Positions 3,636 to 61,888 of a stretch of DNA of 64,000 nt are shown here, one piece after another. Origin of the DNA: Octopus vulgaris. Its lineage: Eukaryota. A program made the position numbers and the translations under genes. The notes beneath the pieces were generated by a model, which had not been told where the DNA came from, did not search any database, and worked only from the letters and a program-made list of their open reading frames with translations. The number at the start of each line of letters is the position of its first letter. The first letter of the stretch is position 1. The stretch lies in contig OX597814.1 of the NCBI GenBank assembly GCA_951406725.2, positions 115,878,001-115,942,000 of the forward strand, read 5' to 3'.

Positions 3636-3666
<31 letters not shown>

Positions 3667-3831
3667 CACGACGGGCTTCTTTCAGTTTCCGTCTACCAAA
3701 TCCACTCACAAGGCTTTGGTCGGCCCGAAGCTATAGCAGGAAAAGACACTTGCCCAAGGTGCCACGCAGTGGGACTGAACCCGGAACCATGTGGTTGGTA
3801 AAGAAGTTACTTACCACACAGCCACTCCTGC

Positions 3832-3833
<2 letters not shown>
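3447..3833 (-). mobile_element. tRNA-derived SINE with CORE-like segment, internal microsatellite and LINE-like 3' tail (family A)
   Basis: Minus-strand A box (tggctgtgtgg) and B box (gggttcagtccc), segment ggcaccttgggcaagtgtctt, tail ggtgctccagcatggccgcagtcaaatgac. Many related partial copies occur at about 6205-6517, 10680-10970, 12170-12460, 12825-13120, 28478-28850, 43575-43980, 53850-54010 and 63240-63800. Confidence 0.85.
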
Positions 3834-3871
<38 letters not shown>

Positions 3872-3872
<1 letters not shown>

Positions 3873-4557: not shown

Positions 4558-4919
4558 TAACCCATTTTCTATAGCGATGTTTGAACAAAATTTTAATAAT
4601 TTTATATTTTGAATTTAACTGTATCTATCTGCAATTAGAGTCACTTTGTGACAAAAATGATAGTATAGAATTGGTTGAGGACATTTCATTAAATTATCTT
4701 CCAAAAATCACATTAATATATTGATAAATAAAAAAGTTATTGTTGTTTAATGAAACCAGACTAAATTTATGATTATGTTAGAAATTAATTGAAACACATT
4801 TTGGTCAGAAATATAGTAACGAAAGGGTTAAGAAAAACCAAAAAATATTTTATTCTTTATAAATGTTGTGTTCAAAATAACATTTTCTTTTAAGAATGTG
4901 TATATAACTACGTGACATA

Positions 4920-11094: not shown

Positions 11095-11918
11095 TTTCTT
11101 TTCTACTCTAGGCACAACGCCCAAAATTTGTTTGGGGGAGCCAGCCGATTAGATCGACCCAGTAAGCAACTAGTACTTAGTTTATAGACCTCGAAATGGT
11201 GAAAGACAGCTGGCCTCGGCGGAATTTGAACTCAGAACGTAACGACAGACGAAATACCGCGAAGCATTTCACCTGGTGTGCTAACGTTGCTGCCAGCTCG
11301 CCTCCTTGGCGGTGTTTATCATTTCGAAGGCGGCAAGCTGGCAGAATGGTTTGGACGCGGAGTTGAATTTCCACCGAGGTCGACTTTGCCTTTCATCCTT
11401 CCGGGGTCGATAAATTAAGTACTAGCTGCGTACTGGGGTCGATGTAATCGACTATCTCCTGTCCCCAAGTTTCAAGCCTTGTGCCTATAATAGAATGGAT
11501 TATCTATTATGTAGGCGGCGGGTTGGCAGAACCGTTAGCACGCTGGACGAAATGCTTAGCGGTATTTTGCCCGTTGCTACATTCTAAGTTCAAATTCCGC
11601 CGAGGTCGACTTTGCCATTCATCCTTTCGTGGTCAAATCAGTACCACCTACGCACTGGGGTCGATATAATCGACTTAATCCGTTTGTCTATCCTTGTTTG
11701 TCGCCTCTGTGTTTAGCCCCTTGTGGGCAGTAAAGAAATAGGTATTTCGCCCGTTGCTACATTCTGAGTTCAAATTCCGTCGAGGTCGTCTTTGCCTTTC
11801 ATCCTTCCGGCGTCGATAAATTAAGTACCAGTTGCATACTGGGATCGATGTAACTGATTAGCCCCCCCCCCCCCCCAAAAAAATCTGAGGCCTCGTGCCT
11901 CCAGTAGAAAGGATTATT
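11095..11918. mobile_element. Cluster of tRNA-derived SINEs (family B) in both orientations, including a tandem unit with a Tx1-type tail
   Basis: Heads ggcggcgagctggcagaa...gagttcaaattcc (A/B boxes) and the tail tttagccccttgtgggcagtaaagaaat at about 11710-11740. Confidence 0.85.
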
Positions 11919-13139: not shown

Positions 13140-16100
13140 CTGCCTTCGTTCTCTTCTTTATTTCTCTTCTATCATTCTCTTCTTTTCTCACTCGTTCTCT
13201 TGCTCTCCTCTCTCTCGTTCTCTTTCTCTTCTCTCTTCGTTCCCTTCTCTATTTCGTTCTCGTTCTCCTTTTTTCTCTCGTCTATTTTCCTCTTTTCTCT
13301 CGTTCTGATTCTTATTTCTCTCTTCTCTTTTCCTTCTATCTTCTGTCTTCTCTCTTCTCTTTTCCCCCTTGCCTCTTCTATCTTGCCTCTTGTATCTTGC
13401 CCCTTCCTTCTTGCCCCTTCCTTCTTGCCCCTTCTATCTTCTCCCTTCCTTCTTGCCCCTTCTATCTTCTCCCTTCCTTCTTGCTCCTATTTTCTCTCTA
13501 CCTTCTTGCCCCTTCTATCTTCTCCCTTCCTTCTTGCTCCTATTTTCTCTCTACCTTCTTGCCCCTTCTCTCTTCCTTCATGCCCCTTCTATCTTCCTTC
13601 ATGCCCCTTCTCTCTTCCTTCTTTCCCCTTCTCTCTTCCTTCTTTCCCCTTCTATCTTCTCTCTTCCTTCTTTCCCCTTCTATCTTCTCTCTTCCTTCTT
13701 TCCCCTTCTATCTTCTCTCTTCCTTCTTTCCCCTTCTATCTTCTCTCCTTGCTCCTTCTCTCTTCCTTCTTGCTCCTTCTCTCTTCCTTCTTGCTCCTTC
13801 TCTCTTCCTTCTTGCTCCTTCTCTCTTCCTTCTTGCTCCTTCTCTCTTCCTTCTTGCTCCTTCTCTCTTCCTTCTTGCCCCTTTTCTCTTCCTTCTTGCC
13901 CCTTCTCTCTTCTCACTTGCCTCTTCTCTCTTCCTTCTTTCCCCTTCTATCTTCTCTCTTTGCCCCTTCTCTCTTCTCACTTGCCTCTTCTCTCTTCCTT
14001 CTTTCCCCTTCTATCTTCTCTCTTCCTTCTTTCCCCTTCCATCTTCTCTCTTCCTTCTTTCCCCTTCCATCTTCTCTCTTCCTTCTTTCCCCTTCAATCT
14101 TCTCTCTTCCTTCTTTCCCCTTCCATCTTCTCTCTTCCTTCTTTCCCCTTCCATCTTCTCTCTTCCTTCTTTCCCCTTCCATCTTCTCTCTTCCTTCTTT
14201 CCCCTTCCATCTTCTCTCTTCCTTCTTTCCCCTTCCATCTTCTCTCTTCCTTCTTTCCCCTTCCATCTTCTCTTCCTTCTTTCCCCTTCCATCTTTCCCC
14301 TTCCATCTTCTCTCTTCCTTCTTTCCCCTTCCATCTTCTCTCTTCCTTCTTTCCCCTTCCATCTTCTCTCTTCCTTCTTTCCCCTTCCATCTTCTCTCTT
14401 CCTTCTTTCCCCTTCCATCTTCTCTCTTCCTTCTTTCCCCTTCCATCTTCTCTCTTCCTTCTTTCCCCTTCCATCTTCTCTCTTTCTTCTTTCCCCTTCC
14501 ATCTTCTCTCTTCCTTCTTTCCCCTTCCATCTTCTCTCTTCCTTCTTTCCCCTTCCATCTTCTCTCTTCCTTCTTTCCTCTTTCATCTTGCCTCTTCTAT
14601 CTTCTCTCTTTCATCTTGCCTCTTCTATCTTCTCTCTTCCATCTTGCCCCTTCTATCTTCTCTCTTCCATCTTGCCCCTTCTATCTTCTCTCTTCCATCT
14701 TGCCCCTTCTATCTTCTCTCTTTCATCTTGCCCCTTCTATCTTCTCTCTTCCTTCTCCCCCTTCTATCCTTCTTTCCCCTTCTCTCTTCCTTCTTTCCCC
14801 TTCTCTCTTCCTTATTTCCCCTTCTCTCTTCCTTATTTCCCCTTTTCTCTTCCTTTTTTCCCCTTCTCTCTTCCTTCTTTCCCCTTCTCTCTTCCTTCAT
14901 GCCCCTTCTCTCTTCCTTCTTTCCCCTTCCATCTTCTCTCTTTCATCTTGCCCCTTCTATCTTCTCTCTTCCTTCTTGTCTCTTCTATCTTCTCTCTTCC
15001 ATCTTGCCCCTTCTATCGTCTCTCTTCCTTCTCCCCTTCTCTCTTCCTTCTTTCCCCTTCTCTCTTCCTTATTTCCCCTTCTCTCTTTTTTTCCCCTTCT
15101 CTCTTCCTTCTTTCCCCTTCTCTCTTCCTTCTTTCCCCTTCTCTCTTCCTTCTTGCCCTTTCTATCTTCTCTCTTCCTTCTTTCCCCTTCTCTCTTCCTT
15201 CTTTCCCCTTCTCTCTTCCTTCTTTCCCCCCTCTCTCTTCCTTTCCCTCTCTCTCTTCCTTCATGCCCCTTCTCTCTTCCTTCTTTCCCCTTCCATCTTC
15301 TCTCTTCCTTCTTTCCCCTTCTATCTTCTCTTTCATCTTTCCCCTTCTATCTTCTCTCTTTCATCTTGCCCCTTCTATCTTCTCTCTTCCTTCTTGCCTC
15401 TTCTTTCTTCTCTCTTCCATCTTGACCCTTCTATCTTCTCTCTTCCATCTTGACCCTTCTATCTTCTCTCTTCCATCTTGACCCTTCTATCTTCTCTCTT
15501 CCATCTTGACCCTTCTATCTTCTCTCTTCCATCTTGACCCATCTATCTTCTCTCTTCCATCTTGACCCTTCTATCTTCTCTCTTCCATCTTGACCCTTCT
15601 ATCTTCTCTCTTCCATCTTGCCCAATCTATCTTCTCTCTTTCATTTTGCCCATTCTATCTTCTCTCTTTCATTTTGCCCAATCTATCTTCTCTCTTTCAT
15701 TTTGCCCAATCTATCTTCTCTCTTTCATTTTGCCCAATCTATCTTCTCTCTTTCATTTTGCCCAATCTATCTTCTCTCTTTCATCTTGCCCCTTCTATCT
15801 TCTCTCTTTCATCTTGCCCTTTCTATCTTCTCTCTTTCATCTTGCCCTTTCTATCTTCTCTCTTTCATCTTGCCCCTTCTATCTTCTCTCTTCCTTCTTG
15901 CCCTTTCTATCTTCTCTCTTCCTTCTTGCCCCTTCTATCTTCTCTCTTCCTTCTTGCCCCTTCTATCTTCTCTCTTCCTTCTTGCCCCTTCTATCTTCTC
16001 TCTTCCTTCTTGCCCCTTCTATCTTCTCTCTTCCTTCTCCCCCTTCTGTCTTTCTTTCCCCTTCTCTCTTCCTTCTTTCCCCTTCTCTCTTCCTTCTTTC

Positions 16101-18305
16101 CCCTTCTCTCTTCCTTCTTTCCCCTTCTCTCTTCCTTCTTTCCCCTTCTCTCTTCCTTCTTTCCCCTTCTCTCTTCCTTCTTTTCCCTTCTCCCTTCCTT
16201 CTTTTCCCTTCTACCTTCCTTCTTTCCCCTTCTCTCTTCCTTTTTTCCCCTTCTCTCTTCCTTTTTTCCCCTTCTCTCTTCCTTCTTTCCCCTTCTCTCT
16301 TCCTTCTTTCCCCTTCTCTCTTCCTTCTTTCGCCTTCTATCTTCTCTCTTCCTTCTTTCCCCTTCTCTCTTCTCTCTTCCTTCTTTCCTCTTCTATCTTC
16401 TCTCTTCCTTCTCCTCCTTCTATCTTTCTTTTCCCTTCTCTCTTCCTTCTCCCCCTTCTATCTTTCTTTTCCCTTCTCTCTTCCTTCTCCCCCTTCTATC
16501 TTTCTTTTCCCTTCTCTCTTCCTTCTCCCCCTTCTCTCTTCCTTCTTTCCCCTTCTGTCTTCTCTCTTCCATCTTACCCCTTGTATCTTCTCTCTTCCAT
16601 CTTGCCCCTTGTATCTTCTCTCTTCCATCTTGCCCCTTGTATCTTCTCTCTTCCATCTTGCCCCTTGTATCTTCTCTCTTCCATCTTGCCCCTTGTATCT
16701 TCTCTCTTCCATCTTGCCCCTTCTATCTTCTCTCTTCCATCTTGCCCCTTCTATCTTCTCTCTTCCATCTTGACCCTTCTATCTTCTCTCTTCCATCTTG
16801 ACCCTTCTATCTTCTCTCTTCCATCTTGACCCTTCTATCTTCTCTCTTCCATCTTGACCCTTCTATCTTCTCTCTTCCATCTTGACCCTTCTATCTTCTC
16901 TCTTCCATCTTGACCCTTCTATCTTCTCTCTTCCATCTTGACCCTTCTATCTTCTCTCTTCCATCTTGACCCTTCTATCTTCTCTCTTCCATCTTGACCC
17001 TTCTATCTTCTCTCTTCTATCTTGACCCTTCTATCTTCTCTCTTTCATCTTGACCCTTCTATCTTCTCTCTTTCATCTTGACCCTTCTATCTTCTCTCTT
17101 TCATCTTGCCCCTTCTATCTTCTCTCTTCCATCTTGCCCTTTCTATCTTCTCTCTTCCATCTTGACCCTTCTATCTTCTCTCTTCCATCTTGACCCTTCT
17201 ATCTTCTCTCTTCCATCTTGACCCTTCTATCTTCTCTCTTCCATCTTGACCCTTCTATCTTCTCTCTTCCATCTTGCCCCTTCTATCTTCTCTCTTCCAT
17301 CTTGCCCCTTCTATCTTCTCTCTTCCATCTTGCCCCTTCTATCTTCTCTCTTCCATCTTGGCCCTTCTATCTTCTCTCTTCCATCTTGGCCCTTCTATCT
17401 TCTCTCTTCCATCTTGGCCCTTCTATCTTCTCTCTTCCATCTTGGCCCTTCTATCTTCTCTCTTTCATCTTGCCCCTTCTATCTTCTCTCTTCCATCTTG
17501 CCCCTTCTATCTTCTCTTCCATCTTGGCCCTTCTATCTTCTCTCTTCCATCTTGGCCCTTCTATCTTCTCTCTTCCATCTTGGCCCTTCTATCTTCTCTC
17601 TTCCATCTTGGCCCTTCTATCTTCTCTCTTCCATCTTGCCCCTCCTATCTTCTCTCTTTCATCTTGCCCCTTCTATCTTCTCTCTTCCATCTTGCCCCTT
17701 CTATCTTCTTTCTTCCATCTTGACCCTTCTATCTTCTCTCTTCCATCTTGACCCTTCTATCTTCTCTCTTCCATCTTGACCCTTCTATCTCTCTCTTCCA
17801 TCTTGACCCTTCTATCTTCTCTCTTCCATCTTGACCCTTCTATCTTCTCTCTTCTATCTTGACCCTTCTATCTTCTCTCTTCCATCTTGCCCCTTCTATC
17901 TTCTCTTCCATCTTGACCCTTCTATCTTCTCTCTTCCATCTTGCCCCTTCTATCTTCTCTTCCTTCTTGACCCTTCTATCTTCTCTCTTCCATCTTGACC
18001 CTTCTATCTTCTCTCTTCCATCTTGACCCTTCTATCTTCTCTCTTTCATCTTGACCCTTCTATCTTCTCTCTTTCATCTTGCCCCTTCTATCTTCTCTCT
18101 TCCATCTTGCCCCTTCTATCTTCTCTCTTCCATCTTGCCCCTTCTATCTTCTCTCTTCCATCTTGGCCCTTCTATCTTCTCTCTTCCATCTTGGCCCTTC
18201 TATCTTCTCTCTTCCATCTTGGCCCTTCTATCTTCTCTCTTCCATCTTGGCCCTTCTATCTTCTCTCTTTCATCTTGCCCCTTCTATCTTCTCTCTTTTC
18301 CATCT
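13140..18305. repeat. Polypyrimidine/polypurine satellite with 21-bp and 28-bp units built from a 7-mer
   Basis: Units ccttctc-tcttcct-tctttcc and ccttcta-tcttctc-tcttcca-tcttgac. Confidence 0.95.
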
Positions 18306-21944: not shown

Positions 21945-23215
21945 CGAGGGGCGTTCAATAAGTAATGCCCCTGACCCACTTCCCATAGCAGTAGAGCAAC
22001 GAAACTTGGCACAGTTATTAGTCTTTTCCTACATAGGAACCACCCAGAGTTACGTCTTTCTCCCATTGTTTAATGCAGCTCTGGAGACCGTTTTTGTAGA
22101 AGACCCCAGCTTGGTCCTCCAACCTCGACGTGACTTCAGAAATCAAGGCTGCATCATCTGGGAAACGCTTTCCTTTCAAAAACAACTTCATGGCTGGGAA
22201 GAGATGGAAATCAGAGGGTGCAAGGTCAGGAGAGTTCATAGGGGGCGGAGTTCATAGCCGCACACCTGTGCTTCTGATCTGGCGACACGCGAGTTGTGGC
22301 CCGGAGCGTTGTCCTGCAGGAGGAGGATGCTTTTGCTGATCTTGCCCCGCCTCTTGATTTTGATGGCTTCTCTTAATTTCCTCAAAAGTGAAGCATAATA
22401 GGCTCCTATAATTGTGGTACCCTTTGCCAGGAAATCTGTCATCATTACTCCGTCCTGGTCCCAGAAGACTATGAGCATGATCTTGCAAGTGGAGGGCTGC
22501 ACACTTGCCTTCTTTGGAGGAGGTGAGTCACGGTGCTTCCACTGCATTGACTGGGCTTTGGTCTCTGGATCATCGTGATGGACCCAGGTTTCATCATGTG
22601 TAATCAGTCTTTTGAAAAAGTTAGACACATCTTCTTGGCACATCTCCAAATTCATCCTCGTGCACTCGACGCGTTCTTGCTTCTGGAAAGGTGTGAGCAA
22701 CCTGGAAATCCATCTGGCAGACACCTTTTGCATATGCAAATAGTCATGAATGATAGTGTCCACAGACCCAGTACTAATCTTGACCTCATGGACTATTTCC
22801 CGAATAGTTATGCGTCGATCTTCCAAAATGGCAGCCTCAACTTGACGGACAGATACCTCATCAATGGCAGAAGTAGGGTGACCAGATCTGGGAGCTGTTT
22901 CCACAGAGTTCCGACCATGTTTGAATTCACGATGCCAGCATTTTACAAGGTCATATGATGGGGCATCATCACCATAAGTTATTTTCATTTCAGCAAAAGT
23001 CTCCCGTGGTGTGCGTCCTTTCAAATACAAAAACCGGATCACTGTTCGACACTCAACAAGCTCCATTTCACACTTGACTCAGTTCAAACACCTGTAAATC
23101 AGAAACCACAATTAGTTCACAGCTGTAATTTGCTACTTAATCTATAGAGATATCAATAATTGCACATGCAAAAACTGCAAGTGGGCCAGAGGCGTTACTT
23201 ATTGAACGCCCCTCG
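21945..23215 (-). mobile_element. Near full-length mariner transposon with frameshifted transposase
   Basis: TIRs cgaggggcgttcaataagtaa / ttacttattgaacgcccctcg flanked by TA. ORF 22236-23066 has HTH, DETW and QDNA motifs, and ORF 22018-22239 has SPDLAPSD. Confidence 0.95.
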
Positions 23216-23573
23216 TATATGTATGTGTATATGTATGTATATGTATGTATATATATGTATATGTATGTATATGTATATATATGTATGTTTGTGTATATGT
23301 GTGTATGTGTATATATGTATGTTTGTGTATATGTGTGTATGTGTATATATGTATGTGTATATGTATGTATGTATGTGTGTATGTATGTATGTATGTATAT
23401 ATGTATGTATGTATGTATATATGTGTGTATGTATATATGTGTGTATGTATGTATGTATGTATATATATGTGTGTATGTGTATATATGTGTGTATGTGTAT
23501 ATGTATGTATGTATGTGTATATGTATGTGTATGTATGTATATGTATATGTATATATATGTATGTATGTATATT

Positions 23574-24088
23574 ATCAGAAAAACAAAAAAGATAGATGGC
23601 ATGACAGGCCTCGTCTATTGGGGTCGACTAGAAAAGCTAAAACTTTATTCTCTCCAACGTCGCCGTGAGCGCTACATCATCTGCATGATGTGGAAAATAT
23701 TCCATCAGCATTGCCCAAATGATGTTGGCATCACCTTTAAGGTACATCCAAGGCTTGGGCCCTGTGCCATCCGCCCAAAACAAAAATCGCATTCTCATCT
23801 CATAACAACAATACGGCACAATTATTTCACCTCAATTGGCCCCGCTCTCTTTAACATTACACCAAAACACATTAAAACAGAAACAGACCCTATAGGGTTC
23901 AAGAAGTCTTTGGACAGATTCCTTCAGGAGATCCCGGATAAACCCCCTACACCCGGATATGTCTCTGTAAACAATAACTCTCTACTTGAGTGGGCCATAG
24001 TGCCCAAATTCTGACTTGAAAGAATTCACCAGGTGGTGCTATTAAGTTAGACATGGCCTGGGCCAATAATGGCCGAAACCTATCAAAG
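23574..24088 (+). mobile_element. 3' fragment of CR1/L2-group LINE
   Basis: RLEKLKLYSLQRRRERY...FKKSLDRFL, followed by a structured 3' UTR and a (TATG)n tail. Confidence 0.85.
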
Positions 24089-24747
24089 TATATATGTATG
24101 TGTATATGTATGTATATATATGTATGTGTATATATGTATGTGTAAGTGTATATATGTATGTGTATGTGTATATGTATGTGTGTATATGTATGTGTATATA
24201 TGTATGTGTGTATATGTATGTATATATATGTGTATATGTATGTGTGTATGTATATGTATGTGTATATGTATGTGTATATGTATGTATATATATGTATGTG
24301 TATATGTATGTATATGTATGTATGTGTATATGTATGTGTATATGTATGTATATATATGTATATGTATGCATATATATGTATGCATATATATGTGTGTGTA
24401 TGTGTATATATGTATGTGTATATGTATGTGTGCATATGTATGTGTGCATATGTATGTGTATATATGTATGTGCATATGTATGTGCATATGTGTGTGTATA
24501 TATGTGCATATGTGTGTGTATATATGTGTGTATATATGTGTATGTGTGTGTATGTGTGTATATATGTGTATGTGTGTGTGTATGTGTGTATATGTATGTG
24601 TGTGTGTGTATGTATATGTATGTGTGTGTATGTATATGTATGTATGTGTGTGTATGTATACGTATGTGTATATGTGTGTATGTATATGTATGTATACCTG
24701 TATATGTATGTATACCTGTGTATGTATATGTATGTATATATGTATGT

Positions 24748-25643
24748 ATGATCTATATGCTGTGAGTCAATGGGCAGACAGAAACAAAATGCAACTGAAT
24801 GAGAGAAAATTTGAGCTGATGCATTTTGGAAGAAATTCCTCACTAAAACAACCATACTCTCTTCCTTCAGGGGAACCGCTCACAGCCTCTGGGTGTAATT
24901 GTTGATGACGATCTCAGTTGGAGTGCACACATCAACAAGAAGGTCGATATAGCTCGTAGGATGAATTCCTGGATCTTAAGAACTTTCCGGTCCAGAGAAC
25001 AAGGTGTCATCATACCACTTTTTTCCTCCTTTGTACGGCCACACCTTGAATACAGCTGCCCACTGTGGTCTCCCCATACAAGACAAAACATCTCCAGGAT
25101 TGAGTCACCCCAGAGGGCACTTACTAAACGAATTGAAGGCATGGCTGCTCTCGATTATTGGGATCGCCTTAAAGCCTTGAAACTTTACTCCCTCCAGCGT
25201 CGCCGTGAGCGGTACATCATTTGTACGATGTGGAGAATATACCGCCAACTTTGCCCAAACGACCTTAACATTAGCTTCAAGGTTCATCCAAGACTGGGAC
25301 CACGGGCCATACGTCCCCTGCCCAATTCAAGATCACAACATACAAGTACACTGCAACATAATTTCTTTTCCTCAACAGGCCCTGCCCTATTTAACATTGT
25401 CCCGAGGGAGATCAAAGAGGAAAAGGATCCCATCAACTTTAAATGGAGTCTGGATAGATTCATTCAAAGAATACCAGATAAGCCACCCATAATTGGATAC
25501 AACTCACCCAAAAAGAACTCACTACTTGAACAAAACTTGACTTTAACAAAACTTGATTTAAACAGGATTCCAATAATCCTATCAGGTGGTGCTATTAAGT
25601 TAGACATGGCCTGGACCAATCTTTGGTCGAAACATATCTAAGT
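24748..25643 (+). mobile_element. 3' fragment of CR1/L2-group LINE (post-RT region)
   Basis: DLYAVSQWADRNKMQLN..KF, LGV..D..LSW..HI, VRPHLEYSCPLWSP and YSLQRRRERY motifs. Confidence 0.9.
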
Positions 25644-27367
<1,724 letters not shown>

Positions 27368-27370
27368 TGT

Positions 27371-27736
27371 GGAGGCGCAATGGCCCAGTGGTTAGGGCAG
27401 CGGACTCGCGGTTTCGATTCCCAGACCGGGCGTTGTGAGTGTTTATTGAGCGAAAACACCCAAAGCTCTACGAGGCTCCGGCAGGAATGGTGCTGATCCC
27501 TGCTGTATTCTTTCACCACAACTTTCTCTCACTCTTACTTCATGTTTCTGTTGTACCTGTATTTCAAAGGGCCGGCCTTGTCACTCTCTGTGTCACGCTG
27601 AATATCCCCGGGAACTACGTTAAGGGTACACGTGTCTGTGGAGTGCTCAGCCACTCACATGTCAATTTCACGAGCAGGCTGTTCCGTTGATCGAATCAAC
27701 CGGAACCCTCGTCGTCGTAACCGTCGGAGTGCTTCC
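27371..27736 (+). mobile_element. tRNA-derived SINE (family C)
   Basis: Head ggaggcgcaatggcccagtggttagggcagcggac...ggtttcgattccc. Related heads occur at 39626-39917(-), 42728-43002(-), 46283-46530(+) and 7951-8165(+). Confidence 0.85.
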
Positions 27737-28904: not shown

Positions 28905-30002
28905 GAGGGACGTTCAATAAGTAATGCCCCTGACCCACTTCCCATAGCAGTAGAGCAACGAAACTTGGCACAGCTATTAGTCTTTTTCTACATAGGAACC
29001 ACCCATAGTTACGCATTTCTCCCATTGTTTGATGCAGCTCTGGAGACCGTTTTTGTAGAAGACCCCAGCTTGGTCCTCCAACCTCGACGTGACTTCAGAA
29101 ATCAAGGCTGCATCATCTGGGAAACGCTTTCCTTTCAAAAACAACTTCATGACTGGGAAGAGGTGAAAATCAGAGGGTGCAAGGTCAGGAAAGTAGGGGG
29201 ATGGGGGCGGAGTTCATAGCCGCACACCTGTGCTTCTGATCTGGCGACACGCGAGTTGTGGACCGGAGCGTTGTCCTTGCCTTCTTTGGAGGAGGTGAGT
29301 CACGGTGCTTCCACTGCATTGACTAGGCTTTGGTCTCTGGATCATCGTGATGGACCCAGGTTTCATCCTGTGTAATCAGTCTTTTGAAAAATTTTGACTC
29401 ATCTTCTTGGCACATCTCCAAATTCACCCTCGAGCACTCGACGCGTTCTTGCTTCTGGAAAGGCGTGAGCAACCTGGGCATCCATCTGGCAGACACCTTT
29501 TGCATATGCAAATGGTCATGAATGATAGTTTCCACAGACGCGGTACTAATCTTGACCTCATGGGCTATTTGGCGAATAGTTATGCGTCGATCTTCCAAAA
29601 TGGCAGCCTCAACTTGACGGACAGATGCCTCATCAATGGCAGAAGGGGCGACCAGATCTGGGAGCTGTTTCCACAGAGTTCCGACCATGTTTGAATTCAC
29701 GATGCGAGCGTTTTACAAGGTCATATGATGGGGCATCATCACCATAAGTTACTTTCATTTCATCAAAAGTCTCCCGTGGTGTGCGTCCTTTCAAATACAA
29801 AAACCGGATCACTGTTCGACACTCAACAGGCTCCATTTCACACTTGACTCGGTTCAAACACCTGTAAATCAGAAACCACAATTAATTCAGAGCTGTAATT
29901 TGCCACTTACTCTATAGAGATATAAATGATTGCACATGAAAAATTTCAGCTAGATCAAATAAATGCAAGTGGGTCAGAGGCATTACTTATTGAACGTCCC
30001 TC

Positions 30003-30039: not shown

Positions 30040-32394
30040 TTAAGTTTCAGCTCAGCCTGCGGCCATGCTGATGCATCGCCGTTTTGCGCTACACTGTTAT
30101 TACTAGGAACCTCCTCTAATATGTGGCACCTGATGAAGAATAGAGTTTTATATAGCTACCCTCATTTGCACCTCTTGCCGTGAGGTAGGCTCATCTGGGA
30201 CTGTCGACAGGAAGAGATCCAGCTTTGATTTAAAAACCCCTACATCTACTTTGTGCAAGTTCCTCAGACTCTTTGGGAGAATATTAAAAAGCTGTGGGCC
30301 CTTGAAACCTAGGCTGTTACAGTAACTGGTCCTGAAGCGTGATAGCATTGCTGGGATCTTTGGCAACATGCAGTGTCGTCCCTTTCTGGCATTGGTGTAG
30401 CTTACAATGCCAAAATTTGGCACAATTCCTCCCAGGATCTTCCAGATATATATTACTGCCTACCTCTCCCGTCTTCTCTCCAGGGAGTAGAGTCTTAGCT
30501 GTTTCAACCTTTCCCAGTAGCTGAGCTGTTGCAAAGAGACGATCTTCTTTGTAAATTTTCTCTGGATTGCTTCAAGGTCCGCTGTTAATCTCACACTGGT
30601 GGGTGACCATAGCTGTGAGCAGTAATCCAGGCGGCTGAGGACGAATGTCCGCCAGAGGACCATCATGGTTTCCTTATCTCTGGTTCTGAATGTTCTTAGG
30701 ATCCATCCATCCAGTCGTCTGCACTTTGTCGCCATCCTGGTAATGTGCAGTTGGAAAGCGGTATCATCACTCATGTCGATACCCAGGTCCCTCACTGACT
30801 TAGGCTCTGGGATTGAAATTCCATGTGGACCGGTTTACCATGTAGGTTTAATATTCAGTTTTGGATGCTGGTAGCGCAAGGCCTGGAATTTTTCAGCATT
30901 AACCTGCATATTATTATCCTCAGCCCATCTGTAAATTGAGTCCAAATCGTTCAGCAGGTGTGCAACATCGCTGGGGTTCTGTATTTTCTGTGAGACTTTC
31001 GTATCATCTACATAGCTTGCCAGAGTGGCTATCCGGGCATTTGAGGGCATATCTGAGAGGGCCACTATAAAAAGCAGTGATCACAAGACAGTGCCCTGTG
31101 GATCACCGCTCACTATTTGTGTGTTCATTGAGGTGGCTCCATTAGCCACTACTGCCTGACTCCTATCTTTCAGGAAGTCATGTAACCACACTCCAAGTTT
31201 TCCAGCTATGCCGAGGTCACGCAGTTTGTGGCATATCATACCATGATTCACCTTGTCAAAAGCTTTTGCAAAATCAAGGTATATTACATCCACATTTGAT
31301 TTGTTGAGTAACTGCCTCAACACCCAGTCATAATGTTGTAAGAGCTGAGTCAGGCAGCTCCTACCTGGTCGAAAACCATGTTGGGTATCACTTAGCAAGT
31401 TATTTTCTTCAAGGAATGCGATTAATTTCCCTCTGACTATCCGTTCCATGACATTGCTGATGTGTGAAGTCAGAGAGATAGGCCTATAGTTTTTGGCATC
31501 TGCTCTACTTCCCCCTTTATATATTGGGCATATTATTCCCTCCTTCAGCTTGCTTGGCAGTTTGCCATTTGTAAGAATGCTCAGGAAGAGAATCTTGAGG
31601 GGTTTTGCCAGGGCATGTTTACACGCTTTGAGGTGGATTGCTGGGAAACCGCCAGGACCAGCAGTTGAGTTTGTGTCCACTTCATCTATGGCTAGTAGTA
31701 TATCTTCTTCGCTAATGTCAATGTATTCCATTGTAACTGCCTCGCTGGTCATAGGTGAGGCGGCAAAGAAGTCCACTGGTTCGTTCACTTGTCTGTGTTC
31801 CAACGGGGTGGTAAAGACACTTTTGAACTGGTCATTCAGTATCTCATTGATCTTCGTTGGACTGTCTGTGAGGGATCCATCCTTTTCGATGAGGGGACCT
31901 ATCTTGTAGTGCACTGAGGCTGTTTCTTTCGCGTAATGAAAGAAGGCCTTTGGGTTTGACTTAATGTTTTTTATAACCCAGGCTTCTTTGTCTGCTTTCT
32001 CCTTCACATAGGATTGTTGCAGCCTTTTTTCGATCTCTATCAGTGTTGTTTTTAGGCAGGACGTTTCGCTACTTTTGGGATGTTGGTTGAGTCGATTTGC
32101 AACCTTCGTCCGTCGTCTCACGAGGATCTTCCTATCTCTTGGAATCTTACTCCTATTTGTTTTGGTCTTGTGCTCCGGGACGTATTTTTGGCATATGGCT
32201 TGCACAAAAGACATGAAACATTCTAGTTTCATGTCAATGTCTGGTGTGGAGAGAAATTTCGGCCAGTCCTCTCTGAGGATCTCTTTTTAGATTGATTTCC
32301 AATCTGCTTTGTGGAAGTTCAGATTGGAGAGATTTCGGGTGCTTCCTTTAGGCTGTATGTCTCTGGTTACTTTCGGCTCAAGCATAGACAGCTC

Positions 32395-36138: not shown

Positions 36139-36230
36139 CCTGCGCCGATGAGAGAAGAAGTCTGGGTAAAGTAGAATTTTCTAATTCTTATGATATCCTA
36201 AAACTTGATCTCGAAACGTACGTCCGTAGG
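36139..36230 (+). ncRNA. Type I hammerhead ribozyme motif in the inverted arm (also 35550-35641, stem III variant CGGACG)
   Basis: The same motif is read directly on the plus strand. Confidence 0.8.
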
Positions 36231-36309
36231 TAACTTAAAATTGCATGATGGATTGCCGTCATTTCATTCTTTCTTTCTTACCTGTCTGTGTTTGCCTTTT
36301 AAGTGCTGT

Positions 36310-39067
<2,758 letters not shown>

Positions 39068-46073: not shown

Positions 46074-47607
46074 TAAGTGTTTCTTACACAGGCACAGGGC
46101 CAGAAATTTGAGGTGGAGGAGTAGGGTCAGTCTTTTAAATTGACCTTGGTACCTCGGAAGGACAAAATGCAAAGTTCACCTCAGTGAGATTTGGACTCGG
46201 GCCATACTGGACTCGAGTAAATATCGCATTCTTTTTTAACGTTCTAATGATTCTACCAATGTATCACCGTTTCTTGTAATTAGTGGATGCGCATGGTTTA
46301 GCGGTTAGGGTGTTGGACTCATGATCGTAAGATTGTGCTTTCGGTTCCTGGACCAGGCGGACGCATTGTGTTCTTGAGGAAAACACTTCATTTCATGTTG
46401 TTCCAGTCCACTCAGCTGGCAAAAATGTATAATCTTGTGACGGACTGGCGTCCTGTCCAGGTGGGGAATATATACACCACTGAAACCAGGAAACTGGCCC
46501 TCATGAGCCTGGCTTGGCTCAAGAAGGAAACATCTATTTATTTATTTATTCTTGTAATAATCACTTCCGATTTTGGCACAAGGCCAGCAAAACTTTTGTT
46601 GTTGTTGTGGTGGGTTAGACGATGACATCAAATTTGTACCTCTTCAGTACTTTATTTTGTCGAATGTGAAAGGATAAACGACGGCGACGACGATGATGAA
46701 GTGTAGTTAACTGTCTTTGACGAGGCGTAGTAATGGAGAATGATTAAGATTGTGTTTAACTGCTTTCTTGCGGTTTAATATTTGAACTTGATTACTGAGG
46801 TCGTACAGAACACAGTTTAACCTGATAACTAAAGTGTGAAGTGTCGTATTTTTTGATCAAACTGCTTTTTTCTATGTAATTTTATCAATGCAGTACTTGA
46901 GAATAACACTTAAACTGATAAGGGATGTTATGAGATAATGAGGTTACCTCCACCTGGTTGCTCGATCTTCTAAAATTAGCGCCAAAATCACCTTAATGCC
47001 ACAATATTTGTTTAAAAAAAAGGGACTAGTTGAATACTGTGCTCCATCGCCCCTTACGCTTGAGAACATGCAGGATGGTCATATCTGGAAAACCTTGGAA
47101 CATAGGTCTGTTCAGTCGGGATTCATCATCATCATCGTCGTCGTCGTCGTCATCATCATCAACCCCCGTGGATATTACTGTGTTGAGTTCTAGGAGTCAT
47201 AGGACCAGTTATGCCGTTTCTATGGCGTGTAATTGACCGCGGTGACAACATTCCCCAACCTCTGAACGGGGCGCCAGTCTGTCGCAGAGTTACTGATTTA
47301 TAGCTGAGTAAACGAGAGCAAGGTGAAAAGACAACGCACTGCCCAGTTGAGTATAAATCAAGCCATGGCAGAGTTGGCCAATTTCTACACTGGTTAATAT
47401 GTCAACATAATAAAATCAAAACTGTTAACAACTGGTGTAAACACCACCCCGAAGTTGTAATTGAGGGAGAAAATATAACGATTCGTTGGGACTTTCCAGT
47501 ACACACAGACAGAACCATCAAAGCTAATAAGCCGGTTATTGTTGTGAAAGACCAAAACAATGGAGTTTGTTTGTTGATCGATATGAGTATTCCTTGTGAT
47601 CGTAATA

Positions 47608-47897
47608 TGGCGGCAAGCTGGCAGAAACGTTAGCACGCCGGGCGAAATGCTTAGCGGTATTTCGCCTGCCGCTACGTTCTGAGTTCAAATTCCGCCGAGG
47701 TCGACTTTGCTTTTCATCCTTTCGGGATCGATAAATTAAGTACCAGTTACACACCAGGGTCGATATAATCGACTTAATCCGTTTGTCTGTCCTTGTTTGT
47801 CCCTTCTGTGTTTAGCCCCTTGTGGGTAGTAAAGAAATAGGTATTTGGTCTGCCGTTACGTTTTGTGTTCAAATTCCGCCGAGGTCGACTTTACCTT
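47608..47897 (+). mobile_element. Family B SINE tandem units, 5' side of the Tx1 insertion
   Basis: A/B box head, Tx1-type tail, then a restart at ggtatttgg. Confidence 0.85.
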
Positions 47898-50221
47898 TGT
47901 AAAAATATGAGTCTAAGAGACGTAGAATAGGAGATGGTATAGTTAAGGAACTAGAAGAAGCCTTGAGGACTGGTAATGCGGACCAAGCGAGGATGAAAAG
48001 ACTGGAGTTAAACCAGCATCTTGAAGCCCAACACATAGGAAGTATTGCCAGAGCTAAGTTACGTGCAATGGGAAGTGAAAGAATCAAGGCCGCTGGATGG
48101 GCCCGAGTGGTGGAAACTCGGCAAGGAAATAGTTCCACTATTCGGTCTTTGACGAATCAAAATGGTGTCTTGGTAAACGAAGCCGAGAAAATGTGTGAGG
48201 CCTTTCGGGAGTACTTCGCCCAGCTGTTCGGGAGTAACGGCGGTCCTGGTGGTGGGAGAGCCCTCGAGAACTTTCTTGCCGGGATGCTGTGTCTCTCGCG
48301 GTCGGATGCGGAGTCTTGCAAAGGGCCAATCACGCCTGTGGAGGTAATGGAAGCTTTGCCCAACTGTAAAGCGGGTAAGTCGCCGGGACTTGATGATCTT
48401 CCGTACGAGCTGTATAAATGTATGCCAGACTTGCTCGGGCACCTACTGGCTGACGTGTACGCGAACTGGCAACAGAATGAGTTTATCCCCAGATCTGTGC
48501 ACCGGGGAGTAGTGACGTTGGTCAGAAAGGACCCGCACAAGGGGGACGTTATAGAGAACTTCAGGCCCATCACTCTGTTAAACACAGAAGTGAAGATTTT
48601 GGCCAAGGTCTTAGCAAAAAGGTTGGCGCGTGTCGCGAATGGTATAGTCGGGGAAGCACAGACATGTGCCATCCCAGGAAGAACCATTCAGGATCCCCTA
48701 CATCTTATTCGCTATACCACAGAGAGGGATAGTAATAAATCTGGCAAAGATGGGGCATTGGTACATTTAGACCAGCCTAAAGCTTTTGATAGGGTTGGCC
48801 ATCGATACTTTCAGACAGCGTTGTTTGGTACTGGACGGAGGGATCGGTTAAGTTGCTAGGAGTTTGGTTTGGACCAGGCCTTCAGATAGAGAAGAACTGG
48901 ACGGAGGTATTGAGCAGGATGGCTGCAGTAGTCAAGACCTGGTTTTGGCGGTGGCTATCCCTGAACGGGAGGGCGGAGGTGGCCAATGTGTTTATCGCAT
49001 CGGTCATTACCTGACGCCTGACCGTCGTGCCCTGTCCGGATTCGTGGTTGATTAGGTTGGAGATACAGCTCTTTCGCTTTTTGTGGAAAGGTAGGTCGCC
49101 ACTTGTGAAACGCTCTGTCTGCTGTCAAAAGTCTTTAAAGGGAAGTTTAGGGATGCCTTGGTTAATGATGCGCAGGCATGCGTTGAGGTTGAGTCATCTT
49201 TGGATTCTCCTGGATAGTAAACGGGTCTGGTCTCCGCTAGCCAGACTAATGTTCCCCGAGTTCAAAAGTTTTTGCGAACAGGAAGTGGTCAAGTGAATAG
49301 CATAAATAATGCCGTAACGCCCTCTTGCTATTCCGGCGCTCGGGCAACGCCAGCTGTGGGGGTTCCACACGGATTTTATATAGTGGGTTGGTATAGTCTG
49401 AATGTGACGATGGCCTGGGGGCGACTCTAGGTCTCGGATTTATTCAACTGGACTGCTTGTTTCACCGTACATTCGGGTTGAGAACGTTGGACAACTTTAA
49501 AAAGTCCTTGACCTGGCAATGCTACAGAGGTGCCTTGCTCGTTTGGGATAAGCTCGCAAGACACGGTAAGCGTCAGTCGTCGACCTGTCCAAGATGCAGG
49601 GGCGGGGGGTGGGCAGGGAAACCGTCCCTCACGCTATTGTTCAGTATCCGGAGATATCTGAAATGTGGGCTTATGCTGAACACCTGTTGTCCGGCAAAGG
49701 AAGAGTACAGCTATCGATTGAGTCACTTATAAAAACTGACCCACCGGGAGTTTTAACGAACGAAGGTAAGAATAGTTTTTTCACGGTTGTAGCAATAGCG
49801 AAAGAGGCAGTATGGAAGACTAGGATAAAAGGAATTAAGATAGGCAACTTTATCTCTGGCCACAATTTACGATCATTTTTTTCTTTTCATTTGAAAAGGA
49901 AGGTTTGGCTGGAGAAGAGGTGTCTGTCGGAGTGTACGTTCCAAAAGAGATGGAAGCATGTTGCACGAGTACTGTGCGTGCAAGGAACCGTGTGAATAGA
50001 CGAAAAAAAAAAGAACAAAAAAAGGTACCAGCATTAGATCGGGGCTTGTGGGGTCGTCGCTTCATTTGTGTTGTCCCTGTATTGTTAATTTCATTCGATT
50101 TTCTATATATTGTGTTTAATTTTTAAAAGTCACATTTTATGTAAAATCATACCGCATTACTGATCCCATCAATTTTTCTGTCGATTTCTATGTTTAGCCC
50201 TCGGTGGGCAATAAAGAAATT
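47898..50221 (+). mobile_element. 5'-truncated, internally deleted Tx1-clade (L1 group) LINE
   Basis: KSPGLDDLPYELY, NFRPITLLNTEVKILAKVLAKRL, QTCAIPGRTIQD, LDQPKAFDRVGH, FRFLWKG...GSLGMP and zinc-knuckle CPRC..ETVPH motifs. The 3' UTR ends aataaagaaat. Confidence 0.9.
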
Positions 50222-50572
50222 GGTATTTCGTCTGCCGCTACGTTCTGAGTTCAAATTCCGTCGAGGTCGACTTTGCCTTTCATCCTTTTGGGGTCGATAA
50301 ATTAAGCATCAGTTACGCACTAGGGTCGATGTAATCGACTTAATCTGTTTGTCTGTCCTTGTTTGTCCCCTCTGTGTTTAGCCCCTTGTGGGCAGTAAAG
50401 AAATAGGTATTTCGTCTGCCGTTACGTTTTGAGTTCAAATTCCGCCGAGGTCGACTTTACCTTTTATCCTTTCGGGGGCGATAAATTAGGTACCAGTTGC
50501 GTACTGGGGTCGATCTAATCGACTAGCCCCTTTCCCCGAAATTTTGAGCCTAGTGCCTAGAGTAGAAACGAA
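50222..50572 (+). mobile_element. Family B SINE tandem units, 3' side of the Tx1 insertion
   Basis: Two units that each start at ggtatttcgtctgcc. Confidence 0.85.
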
Positions 50573-50772
50573 TATCTCTGCAAAAGAATCTGCCAAGCTC
50601 AGAAAATATGAAGATTTGCTCATTGAAATCGAAAAAAATGTAGCATCTCAATGCAGTTATGGTATCAGTGATTGTAGGAGCACTTGGAATGATAAAAAAA
50701 AGGAGCTGACAATTATTTGAGAATGATCTCTGGCTGACCATCCCACGAAGAAGTGAAAAAGATTGTTTTAAT
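50573..50772 (+). mobile_element. R4/Dong-like REL endonuclease fragment
   Basis: KLRKYEDLLIEIEK...VIVGALGMIKK motif. Confidence 0.7.
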
Positions 50773-51228
50773 TTGTACGTCACACATTTTGAGATTGTTG
50801 CCATCATGAAAACGGTAGCAAACGATGAAGACATTCGGCGGAATCGACTGGATCTGTATAGTACGAAGAATTGGATTCTTCACAACGATGATGTCCCTGT
50901 TGTCACCTGTCGCCAACCTCTCCTCATTCGTGAGTACTCGCCAAAAAACAACATGGTATCGCTTCAGCACCCGCCCTGAGGTGAAAATGGGGATCAAAGG
51001 TGACTGTTTTAATACCGTTGTTGAGATCAAGAGCAAGTCGCAGAAAGTCCATGACTCGTTTACTGAAAATGACTTCCAGGCCGGATTCCAGAAGTGGCAG
51101 AAATACTGGGGAGGGTGCATTGCTGCGCAAGGTGACTATTTCGAAGAAGATGATGTTAAAATTTGGATAAATAGGTTATTATTTTTATTAAATATAACAG
51201 TCCCGGAACTTTTTGATACCGCGTCGTA
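50773..51228 (+). mobile_element. 3' fragment of a different mariner element
   Basis: WILHNDD..., FQAGFQKWQKYWGGCIAAQGDYFE, and a TIR-like end cccggaactttttgataccgcgtcgTA. Confidence 0.8.
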
Positions 51229-51586
51229 AGATTAATTATTAACAACAAATATGAAGTAATAAAAAAATAAACCCCGTAAAGATCTGTTTTGAAAGAGCGG
51301 AAAATTATGCTAATCAAATGGATGTAATAATGAAAATGAGATGAAAAGGTGAAGGACTGACTGAGAAAGTATCATATAATTACACCTAGCTGAAGAGTGA
51401 TCAGATTTTATTAGCAGCTCGCCCCTTGCATTTCAAATTTAAAACATAAACACACCCATACCGATGTACAGTCATACACATATACACATATTCATGTATA
51501 CACTTGAGCCGGCGTGTATGCTGATATTTGTCGGAGCCAGTTGGTGGGTTGATAGTGGCGATGATGTAGGTTGCATTGGTTTCGAT

Positions 51587-57495: not shown

Positions 57496-59479
57496 CATAT
57501 ATATAGGTTTAAGAGACATTGAACGACATTATCTATGATAGAGATATATAAATTTAAATTTTATCAAAATTAATATCTACAATTACTATTCTGAATCCTA
57601 TATTAAATTATATAGACTATGCACGTTTCTTGACAATATATCTATTGGTATTGTTGAAATAGAAGGTCTCGAAATTCAATACCAAATCTATCCGACTATA
57701 CTGCCAATCTCCAGGCCTGGATTATATAAAACTATTGGTTGCCAACATCATGTGTTAGACCGCCTCCTAAAACATGTGATGGATAATACACTGAAAGGAA
57801 AACTGCATCACCAAATATATTATATCCGTTCATAGACAATTTAATTAAAAAGAAATCTACTAGCATTTGGTGGTAGAATGGAAACAATGCGAAGCAAAAC
57901 TTCAAATGGATGATAATCCAGGTTGAAGAGATGACCGTAAATTTTTTATTTGAACTTGGTCATGCTCTCCGATTTTATCAGCAACAAAGCATTTTCCCAG
58001 AAATTAAGTTTAGAAAACTTCCTAGACTTAGCAATGCACGTTGGAATTCAAGAGCAATCTTGGCCATCCGCACATACATGCTTCTACCACAAAGTAGAGA
58101 AAAACTCAACGACGTAAAAATTATAAGGGTAGAACATTTGGAAAACATTTTCATAGCAGTGGTTAGCATGCATAAAAGTCAATAGTCAATATATTTTCAT
58201 ATATTTAACGGCGGTGCATCAGCATGGCCACACCTCTGAGCTGAAACTTTAATTAAAAAAAATGTAAGACTGTATAAGGATTTATAACCAGTGTAGTAAC
58301 TCTTGAAAGAATGCCTTACATGCTAGAAATGGCAGCCAAACCCAAACCACAAGTTTTTGTATTCTGTCTGTCTCTGTCTCTGCCCGTCTCTCTCTCTCTC
58401 TCTCTCCCTCTCTTTTTCTGTCTCTGTCTGTCTGCCTCTCTATCCTGAACAAATACTGCAAAAATAGAGTTGGGATCTGATATACTTGTGCATTTCAAGG
58501 GAAATAACTTTTATTACAAACATTGAGTAACCTCCCTTGAAAACCTTCTACAAGTTATTTTAAGAATAATTGTTGGCATAATCGATAGAACGTCTGGTAT
58601 GATGCCAGGCGGAATTTCTTCCATCTTTACGTTCTGAGTTCAAATTCCGCCGCGGCTGACTGTGCCTTTTATCCTTTCGGGGTTGATGAAATAAATACCA
58701 GTTGAGTACAGGTGGTCGCTATTATCAATTAGGTCCCACCCGTCAAATTTCAGACTTTGTAGGAAGGATTATTAAGCTGGAGTGTGGAACATAAATTAAC
58801 ATAAATTAGCATAAATTACCAGGAAATTTTGCACAAAAGCAAGATCAAGGTTTCGATTTCCGGACCGGGCAGTGCGGTAAGTTCTTGAGCAAGACACTTA
58901 GTTTCACGTTGCCCCAGTCCACCCAGCTGTAAATAAATAACTCTGCAACGGACTGGCACAGTGGAGTGTTGCGATCTTAGCTACTTATGGGCCATGTAAA
59001 CAGAGTAACGGCTGTTATTTCTAGGACTTTAGGAAATTCGAATCATAGACCAGGGCTAGTCTCAAGCAGGATGGTATTAAAAGGGTTAAAATTGGATGAG
59101 GATTATCTATTTAAACTGATAATTGTAGATTTATGTAGAAGCTTATAGTGTTTTGTGGTACATTTTGTAATGTCAATGAAGTGAATACATCCTCCGTCGA
59201 TTTCGATGATGAGTATTGCAGGTGTTCAATTAATTGAACTACCAACTTTTCGGCCTAGCTTGAACTGGAATAAGAAAATTGTGCGAATTTGCTTTTTGTC
59301 CATGCTGTATTCAACGTGTCGGAAAAAAATGGCCTAATTATTCAAACAGAAAATGAGTAATACGATTAGATAGAGCGAAAAACAGGATTTAAAATGATAC
59401 ATAAAGTCAAAGTAACTTAACGAAAATTAATTTGAAAATACATCATTTAAAACCAAAAATTAAAAATTCCGCAAGAACT

Positions 59480-59890
59480 TTTTTATTTCTTTATTGTCCA
59501 CACGGGGCTAAACATAGAAGGGACAAAGAAGGCCAGACAAACGGATTAAGTCGATTACATCGACTTCAGTGCGTAACTGGTGCTTAATTTATCGACCCCG
59601 AAAGGATGAAAGGCAAAGTCGATCTCGGCGGAATTTGAACTCAGAACGTAAAGACAGACGAAATACATATTTCTTTACTACCCACAAGGGGCTAAACATA
59701 GAGAGGACAAACAAGGACAGACAAAGCGAGATTAAGTCGATTATATTGACCCTAGTGCGTAACTGGTACTTATTTAATCGACCCCGAAAGGATGAACGGC
59801 AAAGTCGACCTCAGCAGCATTTGAACTCAGAACTTTAACGGCAGACGAAATACACCCGGCATGCTAACGTTTCTGCCAGCTCGCCGCCTT
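59480..59890 (-). mobile_element. Family B SINE tandem units with Tx1-type tails (similar at 60945-61368)
   Basis: Head, tail and restart structure as at 47608. Confidence 0.85.
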
Positions 59891-61560
59891 ATAACCTGAT
59901 TAAATATTAGATAACTCTAATTGTTGAAGTTGTATGGCTTTTTGTTTGATTTCTTTTCTTTTTTTTTGTAGCCCAAGGTCACTCAATTATTGCTTAACGA
60001 CATGGTTCTAACCACAGATCAGCTGCCTAATTCCTATTTAGTGAGAGATCCTACAGTACGCTTTTATCCTTGTTCCTGTACCAATTTTCCTCATCTATTC
60101 CTAGCACTTCTTTCTGGTATCTCAAAGCTTTATCTGTTACTTTTTGTTTCAGACTGCGACCATGCTGGGGCACAGCCTTGAAGAATTTTTGTCGAATGAA
60201 AGGATCCCAGTACATGTGTGTGTTTGTCTCGGTCTGTGTGTGTGTTTGTCTGCGTGTGTGTGTCTTTGTGTGTGTGTATGGTTTTAACTCTGTATAAGTT
60301 GGATCTATTTTAATATAAATATCTATATATTTATACTTAAATGTTCATCGTCTGAGAGTCTCCACTTTTCGTTTTCTCTCGTTTTGCATGTATACGTACC
60401 CAAGCTGTTATATTTAATACATCTAATTTGTTTATCCGCATAATTGCTTCCATATCTGCTCAACTTGATCCCTCTTATAGCTGTTGATAAACGAAATATA
60501 CGTACATGTCACAATGACATCCTTATAGTATGCGTCATCATACACTGTTCGGTTTCCAGACATTTGTACATTACTGCATATACTTTATACGCACTTTTGA
60601 CAAGTTGTGGTGCACCTGAGCACTGTATACAATAATTTCATTATTATTATAGTATCTATTTACATCTACGTAGTTTTTTTTTGTATACCCGGATGCGTTG
60701 CATGGATTGAATTTTCTTCTAATGATGTCGATTTAAGAGACTTTGTGAAATGGGCTGTTGAAAATTAAGTATCTATGGCCTAGACGCATCAGAAGGTAAT
60801 TGCAGGATATAAAAGCAATAATAGTATCTTTCGTTGAATGGCCACGTTTTTGTTTTAATGTTAATCTCCACGATATTTCTAGATGATCTGTTGCATCTTC
60901 TTGTGAACGAGGGTATGAAACTACACTGTGCAGATATTCTTTTCTGTTCTAAACACAAGGCCCGAAGTTTTTTGGGAGGGGCCCAGTCGATTAGATCGAC
61001 CCCCAGTACGCAACTGGTACTTAATTTATCGACCCCGAAAGGATGAAAGGCAAAGTCGACCTCGGCAGAATTTGAACCCAGAACGTAAAGACAGACGAAA
61101 TACTGCTAAGCATTTCGACCGGCGTACTACCTTTTCTTATTTCTTTATTGCCCACAAGGGGCTACACACAAAGAGGACAAGGAAGGACAGACAAAGGGAT
61201 TAAATCAATTACATCGACACCAGTGCGTAACTGGTACTTAATTTATCTACCCCGAAAGGATGAAAGGCAAAGTCGACCTCGGCGGAATTTGAACTCAGAA
61301 CGTAGCGGCAGACGAATTACCGCTAAGCATTTCGCCCGGCGTGCTAACGTTTCTGCCAACTCGCTGCTTTACACTGTGCAGATATTCAAGTAACAATGAT
61401 TTGCTACTCCAATATTATATTCACTCGTTCATTTCACTCTTCTATACGAACCTATACCAATAACTGCATTAGACTGATGAACTTACCGCTGCAAAAACAA
61501 TCGCTGTTTATTCTATCCAGCAATGATACCAGTTAATAAATTCAACTGTACTTACCTTAT

Positions 61561-61888
61561 AATTGCAGCGTGGAAGGTGTTTATAAGTCATTTAAGAAAC
61601 ACACAAAAACCGTTAGATTCACTTCAACATTTAAATTTAACTTGCCAAAATATTTTCGTCGCTTTGAGACTGCGACCTGTTCACTGACAAAACTTCGTGC
61701 TCAGTGAACAGGTCGCGGTCTCAAAGCGACGAAAATATTTTGACAAATTAAATTTAAATGTTGAAGTCAATCTAACGGTTTTTGTGTGTTTCTTAAATGA
61801 CTTTTAAACACCTTCCACGCTGCAATTGTTTTCGTTCCAACACACGATCTCAGATCAAGTCACTCGCTATGCAAGGACATCTCCGTAA
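61561..61888. mobile_element. Palindromic interspersed repeat (arms of ~125 bp)
   Basis: 61561-61687 is the reverse complement of about 61701-61828. A paralogue lies at 2646-3030. Confidence 0.8.

Follow-up and report, generated by a model that had tools for sequence, protein, structure and literature searches.

Tx1L belongs to the LINEs of the Tx1 clade that insert into specific targets. Keno, Kibi and Koshi are further members of this group in the excerpted account of PMC4494074. In the same excerpts, the crocodilian SINEU-3 and the Tx1-Mar LINEs have common hot spots in Mariner-N4, and 313 of 347 SINEU-3 copies are flanked by Mariner-N4 (Kojima, 2015, PMC4494074). SINE/LINE pairs with a shared tail are rare in the L1 clade. 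The excerpts of PMC3747384 name ZmSINE2/3 of maize and SINEX-3_CR of Chlamydomonas, which have poly(A) ends and for which they describe no target specificity.

The window analysed here, a 64-kb stretch of Octopus vulgaris DNA, is repeat-rich animal sequence with tandem arrays of a SINE. One SINE subfamily, B, shares its tail with a LINE and lies repeatedly inside heads of its own family. The closest precedent is the crocodilian SINEU-3/Tx1-Mar system. As described in the excerpts, a SINE and LINEs share a target in a high-copy repeat with two hot spots, tandem SINE copies sandwich the target-site duplication (TSD), and transcription from the target has been proposed (PMC4494074). The crocodilian target is an unrelated DNA transposon, whereas the octopus target is the SINE's own family, and this self-targeting is the new part. 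The crocodilian SINEs carry snRNA heads and poly(A), in contrast to a tRNA-like head and headless inner units in the octopus; for SINEU-1 no LINE with its 3′ end was found according to these excerpts, while SINE-B has a 35-nt tail in common with a LINE (PMC4494074). SINE-B likewise differs from ZmSINE2/3 and SINEX-3_CR in its end and its target preference. With the Tx1-clade LINEs, the octopus system shares the L1-clade APE-RT-zinc-finger ORF2 of the LINE's relatives and, in one copy, an insertion at a fixed position of a multicopy sequence with a probable TSD. It differs in its target, a SINE head, which was not found in the literature searched; the window LINE is placed at the level of the L1 clade.

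Octopus OR1 and OR2, tRNA-derived SINEs, were reportedly described by Ohshima and Okada in 1994. Two of the OR1/OR2-type SINEs presumably share their 5′ part, and A and B may be these families. Compared by description, all are octopus SINEs, with tRNA heads in OR1/OR2 and a tRNA-like head in A and B; the passages citing OR1/OR2 mention no self-targeting. No report of a self-targeting octopus SINE was found in the literature searched, and the portions at hand of PMC13282606, PMC8967140, PMC4758252, PMC4824008 and PMC5786205 do not mention one; Repbase, Dfam, SINEBase and Ohshima and Okada (1994) may describe the families, possibly as OR1/OR2.

Architecture of the SINE arrays

The window contains 13 SINE pieces, alignable over positions 1-167 (47608 is position 1) and then divergent into tail A or tail B. 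Subfamilies A and B have a common tRNA-like head and body and distinct tails; their bodies also differ at the diagnostic sites 142 and 145, which makes B a family of its own. The features are:

47608..47655, + strand: SINE head, positions 1-48; A-box-like motif about 47619-47629; hot spot 16 inside, at 47622/47623
47656..47839, + strand: B unit u1; body from hot spot 49, B-box-like motif about 47681-47693, LINE-like tail B
47840..47898, + strand: u2, a 59-bp copy of SINE positions 49-107, between u1 and the LINE
47899..50221, + strand: 5′-truncated L1-clade LINE; ORF2 remnant 47903-49995; 3′ UTR 49996-50221, without poly(A)
50186..50221, + strand: LINE 3′ end in common with SINE tail B; the 4-bp stem is conserved, the loop letters are not
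50222..50405, + strand: B unit u3, headless, begins at position 49
50406..50560, + strand: A unit u4, headless, begins at position 49; A-type body variants and A tail
11514..11740, + strand: B unit k1, with head
11741..11905, + strand: A unit k2, begins at position 49
59668..59890, − strand: B unit m1, with head; 13-bp deletion before position 49
59484..59667, − strand: B unit m2, begins at position 49; followed by A-rich non-SINE DNA
61138..61368, − strand: B unit n1, with head
60940..61137, − strand: A unit n2, begins at position 16

The 47.6-kb locus thus reads head, B unit u1, the 59-bp u2, LINE, B unit u3 and A unit u4. Units u1 and u3 differ from the B majority at 7/184 and 6/184 positions, respectively. 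The final unit is A-tailed in three of the four arrays, so the arrays do not consist solely of units with the LINE-like tail. Six SINE loci were inspected for flanking direct repeats: two carry repeats of 10 and 18 bp, one a doubtful 7-mer, and three none. The 18-bp repeat (about 61370-61387 and 60922-60939) encloses the pair n1+n2. With 13 pieces in 64 kb, these direct repeats and the read depth in X21, a run from a related organism, the family is short, interspersed, high-copy and TSD-flanked, as is typical of SINE2 elements. From read depth, about 190,000 SINE bodies are estimated (rough; a 2.8-Gb genome is assumed).

The suggested tRNA origin of the head goes back to A- and B-box-like motifs, found by eye from the A/B box consensus. 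ARAGORN predicted no tRNA, and Rfam gave no tRNA or other relevant match. The region 47608-47700 folds into one long hairpin (z −2.9), not a cloverleaf, whose inverted arms (47636-48/47659-71) centre just before site 49; site 16 lies on the same stem. The tails fold no more strongly than shuffled sequence (z −0.2 to −0.7), and a stem-loop there is suggested by the conservation pattern. In tail A (11870-11915; 60940-60975 on the − strand), a similar 5-nt loop on a different stem of 4-5 bp occurs in two to three of six copies. A distant relationship between the two tails is possible. Runs of four T are absent from k2, m1, m2, n1 and n2, among ten units examined.

Other tandem arrangements of the family were seen as well. 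An A tail followed by a full SINE head (joint of 50575 to 47609) occurs in at least 72 X21 reads and in at least 24 X1 and at least 25 X2 contigs. Full SINE copies also stand head to tail, as at 11328-11514 in the window.

The LINE and the tail in common with SINE-B

The LINE copy is dead. It has neither ORF1 nor endonuclease, about 129 codons of the RT are deleted near 48830, and frameshifts occur near 49290 and 49610. Its ORF2 remnant was delimited by tblastn to the relatives P0001, P0006 and P0002 and still matches the RVT_1 profile (E 1.7e-8). The closest named relative is a protein of Argonauta hians (63% identity over 43% of the query), which makes an octopod host probable. Three of five scanned relatives contain APE, RT and zf-RVT; the other two, N-terminally shorter, consist of RT and zf-RVT. 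P0002, 42% identical to the window ORF, matches human L1 ORF2p with E 5e-68 and R2 proteins with E 8e-21 or weaker. These scores of P0002, together with the APE, RT and zf-RVT of the relatives, assign the LINE by sequence comparison to the L1 clade (L1/Tx1). No protein labelled Tx1 was among its database matches. In O. vulgaris, L1-Tx1 occupies 56 Mb and L1 11 Mb, about five to one (PMC13282606 supplement); a Tx1-type element is therefore probable, as a prior. Read depth gives an estimate of 200-600 LINE copies (rough; a 2.8-Gb genome is assumed).

The last 35 nt of the LINE are identical to tail B at 28-31 positions in all six B units. Of 100,000 shuffled controls none reached 29, the maximum being 22, which bears out the resemblance of LINE and tandem-unit tails noted in the preliminary description. 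A 3′ tail in common with a partner LINE, the trait of stringent SINE/LINE pairs, is thus present. The similarity ends abruptly upstream, where the preceding 30 nt are identical at only 6-8 positions. Since the match to tail B is confined to its last 35 nt, the LINE subfamily of the window may be related to, and not itself, the true donor and partner of tail B.

Two hot spots in the SINE head

Tail B matches seven times in the window (expected 0, from 100 shuffles), and the tail pattern gave no match in metagenome, viral and prokaryote contigs. Five of the seven tails, ending at 11740, 47839, 50221, 50405 and 59668 (−), are joined directly to position 49. The tail ending at 61138 (−) is joined to position 16, and the one ending at 59484 (−) to A-rich non-SINE DNA; six of the seven lie inside the SINE head. 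These tails represent only four independent loci, of which three have the position-49 joint. The chance probability of the window pattern is about 6e-10 (rough). Insertion into the SINE's own head is therefore strongly non-random. As the earlier observations had it, five of the tails precede one fixed head position and one lies outside any SINE; the tail seen about 30 bp upstream does have its own joint, at position 16, and its status as an outlier was lost when relatives were included.

Four of 24 listed runs were mapped to 47560-50620; X21, X1 and X2 were used, and X24 (22/12,895,792 reads) was left out. In X21, 301,292 of 12,895,792 reads map to this region, and at least 2,091 (1,897 + 194) join the end of the B tail exactly to position 16. 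Loose ends behind 50405 number 5,671; their consensus reads into the head from position 16 with an agreement of only 0.44. By estimate, 15-38% of them represent position 16 and 62-85% do not, so that roughly 3,500-4,800 reads leaving the tail end go elsewhere, library chimeras included. The loose-end consensus is palindromic. From the adapter identity, we take X21 to be a proximity-ligation library by its look, and part of its loose ends accordingly to be artefacts.

The tail-to-16 joint holds beyond X21, in at least 28 X1 and at least 47 X2 contigs. A tail followed by the start of position 49 was found in at least 16 X1 and at least 25 X2 contigs among the matches listed; in raw reads this joint escapes counting, since the reference runs through it without a break. 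Summed depth, which is not a copy number, is of the same order for both sites in X1/X2 (1,340/3,438 for site 16 and 1,960/4,130 for site 49). The matches listed comprise 15 for the joint and 19 with loose ends, beside 4,451 and 5,654 further ones, and among those listed none shows the LINE's own 3′ flank. Because reads and contigs of three related organisms carry both joints, position 16 is not an outlier; it is a second hot spot and a major site in relatives. Of the earlier single-target picture the own-head preference stands, with two hot spots in place of one and many tails in unrelated DNA. Amplification of ready-made B+A dimers may contribute to the genome-wide joint counts.

Sites 16 and 49 are alike at only five of nine letters, a similarity equalled by 9 of 157 SINE positions, and a common endonuclease motif was rejected on this ground. 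Two sites with no convincing common motif would be expected if siting were guided by RNA. Read-through transcripts containing downstream target would pair at nicked SINE heads and prime there, each copy remembering the site of its donor, with the endonuclease not being the source of specificity; the hairpin-prone head (z −2.9) may supply the nicks. The few terminators in the units agree with this, and target sequence in the RNA helps R1/R2 integration according to excerpts of PMC6895275 and PMC4494074. Going by the titles of papers cited in the literature at hand, however, Tx1-type specificity is attributed to the endonuclease, and the initial insertions would still require some bias. RNA guidance as the source of specificity is considered quite unlikely.

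Repeated insertion or duplication

The fragment u2 differs from u4 at 2/59 positions and from u3 at 6/59; the private variants T72 and A102 are common to u2 and u4 alone. The SINE repeat of about 57 bp reported beside the LINE is thus real and measures 59 bp (47840-47898), but its partner is u4 (50406-50464). The adjacent unit u3 was rejected as partner on these counts. Likewise rejected was an internally deleted B unit, for which the resemblance of the LINE's first letters to a tail end had spoken, because u2 has u4 variants and the ORF2 alignment reaches 47903. Judged by these variants, u2 is probably a target-site duplication of u4, and u4 probably the original target. Since u2 pairs with u4 and not with u3, the duplication brackets LINE and u3. 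Either a single read-through RNA carried both to the site, or the LINE inserted first and u3 followed, at the half-site behind it.

The k1/k2 array shows a similar, duplication-like patch. Units k1 and k2 have six common non-majority variants within positions 58-69 (two private, two family-common) and none beyond; the drop in divergence is not significant by itself (Fisher p 0.15), and two of the common variants look like CpG decay. T49 is common to m1 and m2, while n1 and n2 have no private variants in common. Independent insertions with target duplication predict array-specific variants past position 49, as are found with T72/A102, positions 58-69 and T49. Repeated insertion with brief duplications of the target would account for these patches; gene conversion might produce the same picture.

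Alternatively, the arrays could have grown from one ancestral chimera at the DNA level, neighbouring copies undergoing unequal crossover, gene conversion or local duplication. Conversion could yield the short patches in k1/k2 and u2/u4, and u1/u3 is the closest B pair (7.1%), both units being near the B majority. Over 184 nt, however, u1 and u3 have no non-majority variant in common, and the divergence of m1/m2 (13.0%) is no lower than the mean between arrays (12.2%). Adjacent units differ in subfamily and in tail, and the joints lie exactly at the tail end at unlinked loci and in three organisms. Because whole neighbouring units have no more common variants than unrelated ones, DNA duplication is disfavoured. 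In the window these events are largely refuted and, as a general account, very improbable; the local duplication of an ancestral chimera, raised at the outset as a possible objection, found no support in u1/u3 and m1/m2. Tandem growth by repeated insertion, not by whole-unit duplication, is supported.

The joints could also descend from a few ancient chimeras (B+A from 16, B+A from 49) acting as dimeric or oligomeric SINE masters. Transcription of these would start at the first head and run on across tail B, the partner of tail A would mobilise them whole, and joint frequency would reflect the success of a master, not targeting. Read-through is possible where T4 is lacking, in k2, m1, m2, n1 and n2; the pair n1+n2 lies within one 18-bp repeat and has no private variants in common, and an A tail ends three of four arrays. 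Left unexplained are the LINE at position 49 with its 59-bp duplication, the array-specific shared variants, the B+B arrays and the B tails in non-SINE DNA. Dimer masters are unlikely as the full explanation, but probably contribute to the joint counts, above all at site 16.

Proposed insertion cycle

It is reasonably likely that an octopod L1-clade LINE lineage and SINE-B undergo repeated target-primed insertion into the head of the SINE family, capturing the promoter of the target. Beside the observed anatomy, shared tail, two recurring joints and duplication-like shared variants, we infer the nicking, the identity of the partner, the joining by homology and the promoter capture as follows. 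Subfamily B would have originated when the 3′ end of such a LINE replaced a SINE tail, so that B is moved by the machinery of that LINE and inserts into its own family. An L1-clade, probably Tx1-type, protein would nick the SINE head at 15/16 and 48/49, and LINE or B RNA would be reverse-transcribed at the nick (target-primed reverse transcription). The B cDNA, whose 5′ part is homologous to the target, would then join the target by pairing. The target head would be retained ahead of the new copy, with no second head added, and a little sequence beyond the nick would be duplicated; that every inner unit starts exactly at the hot spot would be explained by this pairing and the retained head. 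The product, [head][B body+tail][rest of target], would rebuild an intact A-box/B-box promoter for B, and each insertion would regenerate the site, allowing the arrays to grow.

Excerpts of PMC6895275 propose that the cDNA of R2 and of some R1 elements pairs with the target DNA, and call homology-guided 5′ joining undetermined for APE LINEs; TSDs of up to 126 bp are on record there. The LINE at position 49 with its 59-bp duplication is one copy, so that the LINE's own site preference is limited to n=1.

Several points count against the insertion cycle. One of the seven tails lies in non-SINE DNA, and no motif is common to both sites. The match of u2 to u4 needs co-transfer of LINE and u3 or reuse of a half-site, and u1/u3 is the closest B pair. 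The n1/n2 pair, with its 18-bp outer repeat and no common private variants, fits a dimer equally well. The initial idea of a SINE-targeting LINE giving rise to a chimeric, self-homing SINE retains the shared 3′ end, the own-head bias and the repeated insertion; it has to be amended to two sites.

A bolder reading is offered tentatively. SINE-B could be a homing parasite of SINEs that, with its LINE tail, converts parent copies to B-producing loci by homology-guided promoter capture, read-through RNA passing on the site. If so, roughly 10^5 SINE heads would be a self-renewing safe harbour for the LINE-SINE pair.

As a principle this is nothing new, since Tx1/SINE pairs that are target-specific and have tandem copies are already known. 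In the octopus, a SINE and an L1-clade LINE would form one of the rare pairs with a common tail in that clade, and target and passenger would come from the same family. With target and donor variants marking thousands of natural insertions, the second-strand nick could be mapped and homology-guided 5′ joining tested for an APE-type LINE. Repeated insertion would also account for the headless tandem SINE units of octopod genomes, which may be split or miscounted in repeat annotation.

Other repeats in the window

A Mariner transposase remnant lies at 22236-23078 (−) (Transposase_1 E 2e-22, HTH_48). Two further stretches, 29323-29712 (−) and about 50819-51229 (+), are similar to it by eye and gave no Pfam hit. 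Fragments of another non-LTR family occur at 30460-32286 (−) and 24847-25641 (+), with RVT_1 (E 2e-14) at 31084-32286; identity between this family and the L1-clade relatives is low, about 24%. Multi-kb simple repeats (13100-17800, 23100-27500 and 36200-39000) consist of CT-rich arrays and TA/CA microsatellites and contain long stop-free frames. A piece of an apparently different SINE family at 58840-58960 (−) may resemble Deu/Nin-type bodies. An inverted repeat at 61561-61827, MITE- or foldback-like, has arms of 127 nt that are 96% complementary and a 13-nt spacer.
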